From positions 1-54,562 of the IMG/VR virus record IMGVR_UViG_2568526722_000002: a stretch of DNA of 54,562 nt; one strand, 5' to 3'. The notes below the pieces were generated by a model, which was given only the letters and a program-made list of their open reading frames with translations, ran no database searches and was not told where the DNA came from. Origin of the DNA: a virus. Lineage: Duplodnaviria; Heunggongvirae; Uroviricota; Caudoviricetes. A program made the position numbers and the translations under genes. This document shows, one piece after another, positions 12,320 through 14,916 of the stretch. Positions within the stretch are counted from its first letter, which is position 1. Every line of letters starts with the position of its first letter.

Positions 12320-13075
12320 TTATTGCATCGCCAGTAAAAATTGAGAGACAGATATTTTTTCAGCAGAAGTTAAAGAGCCGTTCATTAGCAATGTTGACTT
12401 AATATACTTGCTGGATGTTTCTACGTTGTTATCCACCTTTCTACCCATCAGTACGTTATTTGTGCCAGCAACCCTTGTCCCTGGCAGGGTTGATGTCGCT
12501 GACACCAGTGTGGAGGTCGCGGCGTTGAAAATATCGATTGCCACCACTCCCTGATTAACAGTGGCCACAAAAGCAAATAGACTTCCTGCAGCTATCGATG
12601 AAGGAAAATCAGCATAAGCATACACAGCAGACTGCCCGGTATTTTGAGCTACACAGAACAATCGCCCGGTGGTGTCAAAGCCTATAGAAAAGCCACTGGC
12701 CGTAGAGCCGCTTCCTGCATAATCCGCAATCATATGAGAGTTCAGTCCAGCTGCGGCATTCCTTTTTACCACTCCGCAAATGGTAACACTAAGTGTTGCT
12801 TTCTTCCTTGTATCCAGATAGTTACTAGGATTAACGGTAATAAACCCGCCAGTGTTATTCACTGTCCCGTTAATCACCGCCGGGTTATTTTGATCGTATG
12901 AGTCGTAAGTAATATCTGTTACCGGGTCCCCGAAATAGAACCCGGCATACGGTGTTGCCCCTGTGGTTGGCAGACCAATAAACCAGTTCGAAACATCAAA
13001 ATCAGAAAGAGTTTTCATCCCTGTTATCACAGGAAGAACTGCATCAATATAAATGGCGGAAATAGGCATTATCAA
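12320..13075 (-). CDS. tail-fibre-associated protein of unknown function
   Basis: 251-aa ORF immediately downstream of, and overlapping, the tailspike gene. Confidence 0.4.
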   Translation of the reverse strand: MIMPISAIYIDAVLPVITGMKTLSDFDVSNWFIGLPTTGATPYAGFYFGDPVTDITYDSYDQNNPAVINGTVNNTGGFITVNPSNYLDTRKKATLSVTICGVVKRNAAAGLNSHMIADYAGSGSTASGFSIGFDTTGRLFCVAQNTGQSAVYAYADFPSSIAAGSLFAFVATVNQGVVAIDIFNAATSTLVSATSTLPGTRVAGTNNVLMGRKVDNNVETSSKYIKSTLLMNGSLTSAEKISVSQFLLAMQ

Positions 13076-14916
13076 CCCCCGATAAAAAATTCTTTTTTAA
13101 TTGCTCTCGTCAGTACATACGCGCCAAGAGGACTTAGATGGAGGCCGTCAGCCCATGCCCCCCCAACACTGTTATAAACCTTTGGAAATAGTTGATACCC
13201 ACTAATAAAATTAACATTTTGCTCTACAGCTATTTCCCTCATTGTTTTATCGTACTCTGACAATGCTGGCGTACCTGTAGCGTTGCATTGCGCGGGTGAC
13301 ATTAGGCAGATGCAAATATCTGGCGTTGCACTACGGTATTTCGAGATAATCTCAACTATTCCTGACTTGTACTCAGCGACACCCTGGCTCAGTCTGAAGT
13401 CATTTGTCCCGAGAATAATAAACAGCAGATCAATGTCCAGATATTGCGCTACTGGCTGTATCCATAATGAAAAGTTGAAATAATCGCTCGCTATAGATGC
13501 TCCGTTGCCCATCCTTGATACGGTAAGCCCAGATGCAATAGAGTTATTTTTACCGTACATTCCAAGGATAGAAACAACACCGGTACCGGTACTTTGGATC
13601 GTCACCGTATGTGCGGTCGCGCTAAGTCCGCTGAAATCATATTTCTTGGCAGTTCCTGTATTCCCTCCCGTGATTGTTACGGGTGTATTACTGTCGATGG
13701 TGATAGTGAACGTTCCAGACCCGTCATAATAAAATACTGATAGATTTGTTACGGTCACGCCGGTCCAGACGAGAGAACCAACAGTGTTGTTGTTATAGTA
13801 CCCGTTTCCATCAGGCCCGCAGCCATATGGCGGAATGTTCGTGTTATTGCTCCCACCATCATATTTTGTAAAGTTGGTGGCTGTAACGGGTGATATCCCG
13901 GACATGACACCATCAGTTCTGTCTGAGCAACTGATCCACCCAGGGTCTTTGTATGTTCCACCAAGGATATTAATTAAAGACTGAGGAATGGTGTTTTTCT
14001 CTGTCCACGAATCGCCGGTAAAAGCAATGTTTAGGCTGGTAGACTGGCCAGCAAAAATACGGCTATTTTTGAAAAGGAACTTGTACTGATCTCCTTCGAT
14101 GAAGGAACGTACCGCATTAACTTCCCCACCAGACACCAGGTTTTTGACATATTCCTGCAATACCGGGCCAAGACCTGGAGCATCGAATAGCCCACCATTA
14201 AACCAAGCATATACGTTCCCTTGTTGGTCATATAAAAAAGGAAAGTAATAAGGTGAAAAGTCTCCTTGCGGTATAAACTTCTGGGCCCATTCGTTTGGAA
14301 TTTCAGAAACAACCTGTGTAACATTTGGCCCCAGTCCGGCCACATCAAATTTGCCGCCATCAAACCATGCTGGCACCATACTATTCCTGTCAAAGAAGGC
14401 CGGGAAATAACCAGGCCTGTATTCACCTGGGACGAGGCGCTCATTAATTTTATCATCAACGGTCTTGGTTGATGGCATTTGGCGCCCAGTAGGCTCCAGA
14501 GTCCCTCCGTTATTAATGACTTCAATTGCCAGCGAGCTATCATCAGGACTGCGATAATACGTGGCGCTTCCTGTCGGAATATTAGCAATATCTGCCTGTG
14601 CATCAGCAAGCGTCATGTATTGCTTGCTCAGAGGGATCAGGTTTTGGCGGGCTTCATCAATAACAGCGTCGGTAGCAGCTGCCATTTTTTTAGTAGCCCC
14701 AATTATCGTATCCCGGGCGTTACCAAAACGATCTATAAAAGTATCGCTTTCGCTGTTCAGGAAATCATCGTACGCCAGGGCGTTATCATTCAGATCCTTC
14801 ATGCTATTTGAAGGTCTTGGATTGCCGGTATTATATCTTTTGTCCATACCTGTTCCTGTCTTCATCTTTTCAATGAAGCAATTAAGATTGACGACCCGCC
14901 CCTTCAGGGCTAACAT
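13072..14916 (-). CDS. tail fibre/tailspike protein with C-terminal SGNH (GDSL) esterase domain
   Basis: 614 aa; SGNH blocks in order: GDSW (..IAFTGDSWTE..), G (..RMGNGAS..), GTND (..IILGTNDF..), DGLH (..ADGLHLSP..); N-terminal half is the virion-attachment part. Confidence 0.7.
   Translation of the reverse strand: MLALKGRVVNLNCFIEKMKTGTGMDKRYNTGNPRPSNSMKDLNDNALAYDDFLNSESDTFIDRFGNARDTIIGATKKMAAATDAVIDEARQNLIPLSKQYMTLADAQADIANIPTGSATYYRSPDDSSLAIEVINNGGTLEPTGRQMPSTKTVDDKINERLVPGEYRPGYFPAFFDRNSMVPAWFDGGKFDVAGLGPNVTQVVSEIPNEWAQKFIPQGDFSPYYFPFLYDQQGNVYAWFNGGLFDAPGLGPVLQEYVKNLVSGGEVNAVRSFIEGDQYKFLFKNSRIFAGQSTSLNIAFTGDSWTEKNTIPQSLINILGGTYKDPGWISCSDRTDGVMSGISPVTATNFTKYDGGSNNTNIPPYGCGPDGNGYYNNNTVGSLVWTGVTVTNLSVFYYDGSGTFTITIDSNTPVTITGGNTGTAKKYDFSGLSATAHTVTIQSTGTGVVSILGMYGKNNSIASGLTVSRMGNGASIASDYFNFSLWIQPVAQYLDIDLLFIILGTNDFRLSQGVAEYKSGIVEIISKYRSATPDICICLMSPAQCNATGTPALSEYDKTMREIAVEQNVNFISGYQLFPKVYNSVGGAWADGLHLSPLGAYVLTRAIKKEFFIGG

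Follow-up and report, generated by a model that had tools for sequence, protein, structure and literature searches.

A modular tailspike with a predicted SGNH esterase head and a neighbouring backbone acyltransferase in an SfV-like Escherichia coli prophage

Analysis of a viral DNA stretch of 54,562 nucleotides (IMG/VR record IMGVR_UViG_2568526722_000002, hereafter the window) identified the minus-strand gene at positions 13072-14847 as an ordinary but well-formed prophage tailspike, with an acetyl-removing SGNH esterase predicted at its tip. The best overall explanation, and one that we consider probable, is that of a modular SfV-like tailspike with a swappable capsule-deacetylating head, next to which the prophage acyltransferase is an unrelated backbone moron. 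The phage itself would be temperate and SfV-like, with E. coli as its host, combining lambda-type early and head genes with a Mu-type contractile tail, and integrated beside yecD. The tailspike protein is already correctly annotated by PGAP, and the class to which it belongs has been described.

A single uninterrupted reading frame covers positions 13072-14916 on the minus strand, and encodes 614 residues when counted from its first ATG (14916). In the genome of strain JNQH497, which is 99.9% identical at this locus and differs from the genome of the window in the left flank, PGAP places the start at Met24 (window position 14847), and this codon is preceded by an AGGA-type ribosome binding site. 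All residue numbers below refer to the resulting protein of 591 residues; the 614-residue frame of the original prediction is obtained by adding 23. The features of the locus are as follows.

12320-13069, minus strand: partner ORF of the tailspike, 249 residues (ORF249), all-beta, possibly LamG/ConA-like
13072-14847, minus strand: tailspike (receptor-binding protein) gene, 591 residues from Met24; stop codon at 13072-13074
13075-13527, minus strand: remainder of the SGNH core, residues 441-591, with block II (G447, 13507-13509), block III (GTND, residues 480-483, 13399-13410) and block V (DGLH, residues 567-570, 13138-13149)
13528-13947, minus strand: beta-sandwich inserted between blocks I and II, residues 301-440
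13948-14100, minus strand: first part of the SGNH core, residues 250-300, with block I (GDSW, predicted nucleophile Ser280) at 14005-14016
14113-14445, minus strand: shaft, residues 135-245, with two internal repeats of about 43 residues (YFPxxxDxxGxVxAWFxGGxFDxxGLGP)
14458-14625, minus strand: conserved neck domain, residues 75-130, the head-exchange junction
14638-14847, minus strand: N-terminal virion-anchor helix, residues 1-70, specific to the prophage backbone
15033-15212, plus strand: small ORF, possibly a regulator (phrog_20491, E=1e-29)
15212-16303, plus strand: AT3-family acyltransferase moron (Pfam Acyl_transf_3, E=1.2e-15; phrog_3333, O-acetyltransferase)
16282-17067, minus strand: glycine-rich tail-fibre-like protein, constant in the backbone (Pfam Gly_rich_2, E=1.3e-9; tail-fibre PHROGs)
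17094-17768, minus strand: Mu Gp48/YmfQ-type baseplate wedge protein (Pfam Phage_Mu_Gp48, E=5e-31; phrog_203)

The tail module runs from gp45-48-like baseplate genes through the glycine-rich fibre gene and the acyltransferase moron to the spike. The Mu Gp48/YmfQ-type gene is the final conserved baseplate gene ahead of the fibre and spike genes. The 3' ends of the acyltransferase and glycine-rich fibre genes overlap by 22 nt, and the stop codon of the small ORF overlaps the acyltransferase start. PGAP gives the small ORF 59 residues (up to 95 from a GTG at 14925); its product is called hypothetical in most genomes, while a single genome has it as a "transcriptional regulator". A search of NCBIfam returned no match for the tailspike, ORF249, the prophage acyltransferase, the small ORF or the glycine-rich protein. 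When positions 11300-17200 were scanned for promoters and terminators, the counts were at the level of shuffled sequences (12 versus 12.2, and 8 versus 5.3), so the scan sheds no light on transcription of the spike gene across the antisense moron.

The protein had been predicted to be a tailspike, and its anchor, its gene position and its homologues all agree with this. Residues 7-54 of the anchor match residues 4-59 of the tailspike gp13 of phage Sf11 (9occ_G; E=0.002 with a single sequence and E=1.5e-5 with a profile), which is the part seen docked on the tail by cryo-EM (PMC12724387). The gene lies just after the Mu-type baseplate genes of a complete prophage, and homologues fill the tail-fibre slot of virulent Klebsiella phages such as the T7-like K59PH2 and the T1-like Sin4. 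The protein matches phrog_14987 with E=1e-162. Among its 1,700 homologues, Klebsiella and E. coli prophage proteins named "SGNH/GDSL hydrolase family protein" predominate, and hundreds of proteins from Klebsiella prophages match it at 55-67% identity over the full length. The modular architecture is visible in how conservation is distributed along the chain. The anchor helix is 88-95% identical among all head variants of the same prophage family, the neck is the most conserved module of the family (mean identity 65%) and is also present in many tail-fibre PHROGs, and homology between head variants stops at about residues 124-132. In the shaft that follows, the internal repeats gave a self-alignment score of 111, against 25.5 +/- 5 (maximum 45) in 500 shuffles. 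The shaft has low pLDDT in the AF2 monomer model, as expected of an interdigitated trimer, and we infer that the tailspike is trimeric.

Four SGNH blocks had been read in the C-terminal half, and they are indeed there in the expected order: GDSW at residues 278-281, G447 within GNG, GTND at 480-483 and DGLH at 567-570. In an alignment of 38 homologues with overall identities of 36-85%, residues D279, S280, W281, G447, N448, G480, T481, N482, D483 and H570 were invariant or nearly so, and D567 was conserved at 90% or more. The catalytic triad would consist of Ser280, His570 and Asp567, with Gly447 and Asn482 as the probable oxyanion hole. A profile search returned Pfam Lipase_GDSL_2 (E=5.4e-10, 40.5 bits versus a cut-off of 32.9); the match is limited to blocks II-V because the insertion interrupts the profile. 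Structure prediction gave the three-layer alpha/beta/alpha fold of SGNH proteins. The beta-rich insertion proposed between blocks I and II was recovered in the AF2 model as an all-beta segment with pLDDT of 87-96; Foldseek also matches it to CBM6 and CBM61 modules, and it probably serves to hold the polysaccharide.

The head resembles the peptidoglycan O-acetylesterase Ape1 (N. meningitidis 4k3u; C. jejuni 8gkd and 8gld) over 319-328 residues at 13-18% identity, the inserted domain included. Both share the SGNH core and a beta-sandwich between blocks I and II, and their catalytic Ser, Gly, Asn, Asp and His align. The residue-level alignment with 4k3u covers blocks II, III and V, with G447 and GTND opposite the Ape1 motifs MGING and GTNE, and block I of the tailspike aligns to that of Ape1. 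On the strength of its sequence and modelled fold, the head is predicted to be an Ape1-type SGNH O-acetylesterase. Ape1, the closest solved structure, has peptidoglycan and not capsule as its substrate. The match prompted us to consider that the head might itself be a virion-borne peptidoglycan O-acetylesterase, preparing the wall for a virion lysin at DNA injection, or an endolysin-type enzyme. From its context this reading was ranked low, and we regard it as very improbable. Identity to Ape1 is just 13-18%, and the presence of the domain correlates with the capsule locus. Moreover, the domain occupies the distal, exchangeable end of a receptor-binding protein, where sister prophages carry CotH, SASA or beta-propeller-type heads. 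O-acetylation of peptidoglycan is not known from E. coli or Klebsiella. The SGNH domain of one Klebsiella phage receptor-binding protein has been read as suggestive of an endolysin (Beamud et al., PMC9989827), which would be in line with a role at the wall. Ape1, however, is a periplasmic housekeeping enzyme removing 6-O-acetyl groups from MurNAc, whereas the present domain caps a virion protein built from anchor, neck and shaft modules, and its substrate is almost certainly different.

The distribution of the head suggests the capsule as the probable target. It occurs in O9 strains bearing Klebsiella-type group-1 capsule loci. JNQH497 is an O9:H10 strain that has a group-1 K-locus and, following ugd, an AT3 gene, WP_213201955.1 (an assignment as O37:H10, loosely linked to the strain in one paper, was set aside in favour of the primary report and the annotated locus, which give O9:H10). 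The K-locus of JNQH497, here called K-locus A and also present in strains ECCTRSRTH03 and WI2, was found with its AT3 gene in 8 of 5,426 genomes, and acetylation of its capsule is predicted solely from this linked gene. The exact head cassette was present in 5 of the 5,426, all with K-locus A and on two different prophage backbones. The head lineage was carried by 6/8 K-locus A genomes, compared with 32/211 (p=1.8e-4): by all six in which the AT3 gene is intact, and by neither of the two in which an IS has destroyed it (IS3 in strain C51 and IS1 in strain H2; Fisher p=0.036). These statistics rest on about 3 lineages and 2 independent acquisitions, and carry no phylogenetic correction. The Wzy of K-locus A is at least 90% identical in Klebsiella, and prophages of K. 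variicola carry the head at 95-99% identity. A strict correspondence between head allele and K-locus was rejected, as WI2 and F5, both with K-locus A, share their SGNH allele at the protein level with EC20, whose K-locus is different and contains no annotated acyltransferase; taken by itself, the esterase head is therefore not strictly K-type specific. In Klebsiella, SGNH receptor-binding proteins have likewise been described as less K-specific than depolymerases (PMC13123978). The likeliest substrate of the spike is, in our assessment, the group-1 capsule of Klebsiella type found on O9 strains, with acetyl groups added by the K-locus's own acyltransferase. The spike would bind the O-acetylated surface polysaccharide of the host and strip its acetyl groups, modifying the receptor without depolymerising it, which would let the virion cross this layer and reach the outer membrane.

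The head could instead de-O-acetylate the O9 O-antigen or another part of LPS, in the manner of the G7C tailspike gp63.1. The backbone and the head lineage do appear to be confined to O9-family hosts: in the 60 of 211 O9-family rows that were examined, 10 backbone genomes were present, where 9.1 would be expected if all 32 backbone genomes were O9, and 0.35 if O9 status were random. G7C and Pectobacterium phage PP99 both provide precedents in which the target is an O-polysaccharide. We nevertheless consider an O-antigen substrate quite unlikely. The head varies within one O-type, as O9 hosts with the same backbone carry different heads (SASA in HS and Res13, "TolB" in 38I23CPO002), and the relatives of the present head are capsule-associated receptor-binding proteins of Klebsiella. 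The O9 polymannan is not known to be O-acetylated. The mode of action may still be similar, because gp63.1 (4qnl), a virion SGNH esterase that deacetylates the O-antigen (PMC13123978), removes O-acetyl groups without cutting the chain.

If the capsule is the substrate, what is the role of the acyltransferase gene that adjoins the tailspike in divergent orientation? The original prediction had the spike and this enzyme acting on the same surface modification, and the comparison of genomes does not support this. The same acyltransferase stands beside several unrelated heads, the head occurs elsewhere without it, and the hosts' K-locus has an acyltransferase of its own. In 32 E. coli genomes, the same acyltransferase gene (at least 97% nucleotide identity) was found next to at least five head types: SGNH-1, an unrelated SGNH-2, SASA-esterase, CotH and "TolB". 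An identical acyltransferase protein (WP_000901074.1) accompanies the SGNH-1, SGNH-2 and "TolB" heads; beside the CotH and SASA heads the protein is near-identical, and the acyltransferase therefore does not co-vary with the head. Conversely, tRNA-Arg/yfdC prophages of E. coli and K. variicola, as well as four virulent phages, carry the same head (94-100% amino acid identity) and lack an acyltransferase within 6-9 kb of it; examples are the loci L006, L007, L015, L020 and L024, and phages Sin4 and K59PH2. The notion that the prophage enzyme is a relative of the K-locus acyltransferase was also rejected, with BLASTP detecting no similarity between the two. The acyltransferase is a backbone moron independent of the head type, and signs of a matched partner are absent.

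A matched pair, in which the prophage would acetylate the very epitope position that its spike recognises and removes, is unlikely in the light of this distribution, whatever the adjacency and divergent orientation of the two genes may suggest. An esterase head is present in 24 of the 32 acyltransferase genomes and comes from three unrelated lineages (Ape1-like SGNH in 7, a second GDSL type in 1 and SASA in 16). These counts are not independent, since four records of strain HS are among the 16 SASA copies, and related temperate phages in any case carry SGNH heads more often than any other type. What the 24/32 copies leave is a possible weaker, generic link between carbohydrate-esterase heads and the acyltransferase backbone. 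In EC20, with its esterase head and no annotated K-locus acyltransferase, the prophage enzyme could supply the acetyl group, and an interplay of acetylation and deacetylation has been floated as an open idea (PMC13123978). However, if the spike needs the acetylated form, acetylation by the lysogen would favour superinfection and not block it.

The backbone acyltransferase most likely modifies another glycan common to O9-family hosts, which would lead to lysogenic conversion or superinfection exclusion. Temperate phages have O-antigen modification morons adjoining their tailspikes, such as oac of Sf6 and gtr of P22 and SfV, and the att-proximal position next to the tailspike is the classic site of serotype-conversion genes. 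The AT3-family moron (phrog_3333) shares this place. It differs from these morons in showing no NCBIfam similarity to characterised enzymes, and the spike that it adjoins is a predicted esterase, not a glycanase. Its closest phage match, from a Vibrio phage, is 28% identical.

The head does have a constant companion, ORF249, the ATG of which lies 2 nt past the tailspike stop codon. ORF249 always directly follows the same head lineage, whether the carrier is a prophage or a virulent phage (Sin4, KYP, K59PH2 and VLCpiM5b); its identity tracks that of the accompanying head, and the ORFs downstream of other head types are unrelated to it. The head moves horizontally together with this cognate partner, as a two-gene cassette. 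An exhaustive profile search of 1.84e9 proteins showed the ORF249 family to be small (29 clusters), and its distant matches carried no informative Pfam domain. A sequence search of the PDB gave no match, and against Pfam only faint matches to Laminin_G_3 were seen, in two of eight members. Foldseek returned weak matches to LamG and CBA120-TSP2 (E about 1e-4, TM 0.35-0.5); this likeness is a mere hint, as the AF2 model is poor (pLDDT 46). ORF249 may act as a chaperone, or it may be a lectin-like co-subunit. ORF249 allele 1 is confined to K-locus A, whereas the esterase allele is common to different K-loci. This could mean that the receptor-binding unit is a two-protein module, of an esterase spike and an obligate LamG-like ORF249, in which the partner and not the esterase sets K-type specificity. 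Bacteria could then escape the phage naturally through IS insertions that destroy the K-locus acyltransferase, as in C51 and H2, and the backbone acyltransferase, by acetylating the O9 antigen or another common glycan, would add a second, independent layer of "acetyl code" for superinfection exclusion. Taken as a whole, this extended scheme is possible but doubtful.

The nearest described systems are the SGNH receptor-binding proteins of Klebsiella prophages, which are the commonest enzymatic type there, and of which 164_08-KL2 and 174_38-KL55 have been shown to be esterases (PLoS Biol 2026, PMC13123978). The present tailspike resembles this set by description: like its members, it comes from a temperate phage, has a C-terminal SGNH head with no beta-helix depolymerase, and is associated with capsule, often with prophage acetyltransferases nearby (PMC13123978). 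It differs from them in residing in E. coli (O9, group-1 capsule) on an SfV-like backbone. The Ape1-type insertion and the conserved 249-residue partner ORF go unmentioned in that study, the text of which contains neither "Ape1" nor "carbohydrate-binding".

Among the receptor-binding proteins of temperate Klebsiella phages, SGNH esterase spikes are now recognised as the most frequent enzymatic type. The locus is a clean E. coli example of such a spike, and comparison across genomes separates three components that would be run together if adjacency were the sole guide: the exchangeable esterase head with its partner ORF, the K-locus acyltransferase as the probable maker of the substrate, and the backbone moron with a probably different target. 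Strains with the same K-locus and an intact or IS-destroyed acyltransferase, together with one backbone that carries five heads, offer natural test material for capsule O-acetylation as a receptor determinant. This question matters for the prediction of phage host range, and for selecting phage enzymes to use on E. coli and Klebsiella strains that have a capsule.

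The tailspike gene of the window and its immediate surroundings are laid out as follows.

12320-13069, minus strand: ORF249, a partner frame of 249 aa
13072-14916, minus strand: tailspike gene, one open frame of 614 aa from the first ATG
14925-15212, plus strand: small ORF of 59-95 aa (phrog_20491; "transcriptional regulator" in one genome)
15212-16303, plus strand: AT3-family acyltransferase gene of the prophage (the moron), adjoining the spike gene and divergent from it

A 5.1-kb stretch around the spike gene is 99.9% identical to E. coli JNQH497, in which PGAP starts the protein at the second Met (window 14847), giving a 591-aa "SGNH/GDSL hydrolase family protein". 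An AGGA-type ribosome-binding site precedes this second Met, and the 591-aa numbering was therefore adopted. The four SGNH blocks noticed in the original prediction are indeed present and in order: GDSW (278-281), Gly447, GTND (480-483) and DGLH (567-570). Their residues are the invariant or near-invariant ones in an alignment of 38 homologues with 36-85% overall identity to the spike. A profile search detected Pfam Lipase_GDSL_2 (40.5 bits against a gathering threshold of 32.9, E=5.4e-10), covering blocks II-V only, because about 165 residues part block I from block II.

The same 38 sequences served to build an AlphaFold2 model of the spike, with a mean pLDDT of 77. The head (aa 250-591) mostly scored 83-96; the shaft was poorly defined, with low pLDDT in the monomer. 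The beta-rich insertion proposed between blocks I and II is all-beta in this model (aa ~301-440). Foldseek comparison with the PDB did not return a non-SGNH fold, the outcome that had been set against the esterase assignment: the top matches were the peptidoglycan O-acetylesterases Ape1 of Campylobacter jejuni (8gkd/8gld) and Neisseria meningitidis (4k3u), with E-values of 7e-19 to 8e-18 and target TM-scores of 0.72-0.78. In a profile search of PDB sequences, Gly447, GTND and DxLH lined up with the corresponding Ape1 motifs. On these structural matches and the motif alignment, the head is predicted to be an Ape1-type SGNH esterase, sharing with the two Ape1 enzymes an SGNH core with an inserted beta-sandwich.

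The label "tailspike" also held. Residues 7-54 are similar to the N-terminal part of gp13, the tailspike of Shigella phage Sf11 (9occ_G; E 0.002 with the single sequence, 1.5e-5 with the profile), and exactly those gp13 residues form, by cryo-EM, a trimeric helix bundle docking on the tail (PMC12724387). In gene order it comes after baseplate genes of the Mu type (gp45-48-like, YmfQ) and the gene for a glycine-rich fibre protein. A tblastn search found full-length relatives, labelled tail fibre, in virulent phages of Klebsiella that represent three morphotypes: VLCpiM5b (67% identity), Sin4 (58%), K59PH2 and KYP (both 42%). Those of K59PH2 and Sin4 sit in the canonical position of a fibre gene. 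A tailspike identity is thus well supported, with the trimeric state and presence in the virion predicted. The JNQH497 prophage is complete and SfV-like in layout, combining an integrase, a lambda-type early region and a lambda-like head with a contractile tail resembling that of Mu.

Region-by-region identities divide the spike into four independently recombining modules.

aa 1-70: anchor
aa 75-130: neck
aa 135-245 (window 14113-14445, minus strand): shaft, with two repeats of ~43 aa
aa 250-591: head

In P0001 the head is 99-100% identical and the anchor only 46%, while in P0057 the anchor is 96% identical and the head ~50%. The internal repeat of the shaft, YFPxxxDxxGxVxAWFxGGxFDxxGLGP, is real (self-alignment score 111, against 25.5 +/- 5 in shuffles). 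Four sister prophages (L002-L005) keep 88-95% identity in anchor and neck up to aa ~124-132 and then carry other heads: a SASA esterase, a CotH-kinase-like domain, which is unusual on a phage spike, a "TolB"-annotated head with no Pfam hit, and an unrelated GDSL head. Each is followed by its own unrelated ORF of 251-369 aa.

ORF249 is translationally coupled to the spike, its ATG lying 2 nt past the spike stop codon. It stands directly downstream of every member of the head lineage, in prophages as well as in Sin4, KYP, K59PH2 and VLCpiM5b, and its identity follows that of the head; the ORFs downstream of other head types are unrelated to it. Its family is very small, 29 clusters among 1.84 billion representatives, and almost every member is a stand-alone protein of ~250 aa. 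The structural model was poor (pLDDT 46), and the only hints at function were weak Laminin-G/ConA-like matches, among them one to the C-terminal domain of CBA120 TSP2. ORF249 could plausibly act as a fibre chaperone or as a lectin-like co-subunit.

The adjacent prophage end and its flank contain the following features.

9633-11120: yciI, then a Pin/Gin-type DNA invertase gene (10144-10692, minus strand), then a tail-fibre C-terminal fragment (10769-~10885) that runs without a gap into the 3' third of yecD (from ~10886)
11384-11701, minus strand: S24/UmuD-like peptidase fragment of 105 aa, annotated in strain HS as a frameshifted "DNA polymerase V"
11701-11940, minus strand: 79-aa protein, phrog_3893

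The last two ORFs also follow the SGNH/ORF249 cassette in three unrelated prophages (L006, L007, L015). In JNQH497, yecD is intact beside the prophage; the fibre fragment/yecD junction recurs in isolate 38I23CPO002 (sister prophage L003). This suggests a large chromosomal rearrangement between yecD and a fibre locus under invertase control, which belongs to a second prophage remnant (window 1-10 kb, low GC).

The original prediction paired the esterase with the neighbouring acyltransferase as acting on the same surface modification. A megablast search with the acyltransferase plus the 5' end of the spike gene retrieved the acyltransferase at >=97% identity in 32 complete E. coli genomes, where the neighbouring gene varies.

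SGNH head of this lineage: 7 genomes
Second GDSL head, with no detectable similarity past aa 124: 1 genome
SASA-type esterase: 16 genomes (four records of strain HS included)
"TolB" (beta-propeller-type annotation, no Pfam hit): 3 genomes
CotH: 1 genome
Unnamed neighbour: 4 genomes

The identical acyltransferase protein WP_000901074.1 adjoins three different heads. Conversely, the head recurs at 94-100% amino acid identity in other E. coli and K. variicola prophages, integrated at tRNA-Arg/yfdC, and neither these nor VLCpiM5b, Sin4, K59PH2 and KYP have an acyltransferase near it. The acyltransferase is therefore part of the prophage backbone and the head a cassette; the two do not co-vary, which argues against a matched write/erase pair. 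A looser link between the acyltransferase and esterase heads in general has one point in its favour, some carbohydrate-esterase head in 24 of the 32 backbone copies, but in related temperate phages SGNH heads are in any case more common than any other type (PMC13123978). The end of the small ORF overlaps the acyltransferase start as ATGA, and the 3' end of the acyltransferase overlaps that of the convergent Gly-rich fibre gene by 22 nt (16282-16303). With the moron on the opposite strand and overlapped in this way, late transcription of the spike must run antisense through it or start from its own promoter; no convincing promoter for the spike was found.

What, then, does the moron modify? O9-family wzm/wzt genes occur in 211 of 5,426 genomes. 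Cross-checking used 60 evenly spaced rows of the 211 rather than a full cross-tabulation, and 10 of the 32 acyltransferase-backbone genomes fell in this sample (9.1 expected if all are O9-family, 0.35 by chance). Four hosts checked singly (JNQH497, EC20, HS and Res13 strains) were all O9. Strains of the O9 family thus seem to be the only hosts of the backbone, in which the Gly-rich fibre and the acyltransferase are constant, while the head varies with some other factor. The acyltransferase may, on a reasonable view, modify some glycan that O9-family hosts have in common. It has no NCBIfam assignment, and its nearest phage hit is a 28% identical protein of a Vibrio phage. From the 60-row sample, the SGNH head lineage also seems limited to O9-family strains.

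JNQH497 (ST227, O9:H10; PMC9998317) carries a Klebsiella-type group-1 capsule locus (chromosome 1716691-1754585), ordered galF, PAP2, wzi, wza, wzb, wzc, glycosyltransferases, wzy, wzx, wcaJ, gnd, ugd, then a 316-aa AT3 acyltransferase and the O9 mannan cluster. The backbone acyltransferase shows no similarity to this K-locus AT3. The central K-locus region was found in only 8 of 5,426 complete genomes, and the AT3 in the same eight: intact in six, interrupted by IS3 in C51, and deleted beside IS1 in H2. The SGNH-lineage cassette, present in 32 genomes, occurs in 6/6 AT3-intact strains and is absent from C51 and H2 (Fisher p=0.036, few independent lineages); it is in 6/8 K-locus genomes versus 32/211 O9-family genomes (p=1.8e-4, again few independent lineages). 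The AT3-broken, cassette-free state of C51 and H2 is a possible phage-escape signature. A near-exact cassette (full 2.15 kb, >=91% nucleotide identity) was found in five genomes, all with this K-locus, on two prophage backbones and at two chromosomal sites. In Klebsiella spp., the Wzy of this K-locus has counterparts of >=90% identity, which fits a head common to E. coli and K. variicola prophages (95-99% identical). WI2 and F5, which have this K-locus, share their SGNH allele at the protein level with EC20, whose K-locus is different and has no annotated acyltransferase. The host K-locus is matched more closely by the ORF249 allele than by the esterase allele, and SGNH receptor-binding proteins are reported to be less K-specific than depolymerases (PMC13123978). 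The most likely substrate is an O-acetylated group-1 capsule, whose acetyl groups would come from the capsule locus and not from the prophage.

SGNH esterase tail fibres and spikes are already a described class, of which this spike is an E. coli member, and its PGAP name is correct. Of the original prediction, the motif observation is confirmed and the reading as a tailspike esterase is supported, but the idea that the prophage recognises and rewrites one and the same modification is not. G7C gp63.1 is an O-antigen deacetylase, and deacetylating spikes occur in Acinetobacter phage Aristophanes and Pectobacterium phages PP99 and Possum. Among the enzymatic receptor-binding domains of Klebsiella prophages, none is more prevalent than the SGNH head; two were shown to be active esterases, and prophage acetyltransferases were discussed (PMC13123978, 2026). 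To this class our analysis adds the predicted Ape1-type head architecture, the obligate 249-aa partner ORF, the dissection of backbone and cassette, and a small-sample link to a rare K-locus and to whether the acyltransferase of that locus is intact.
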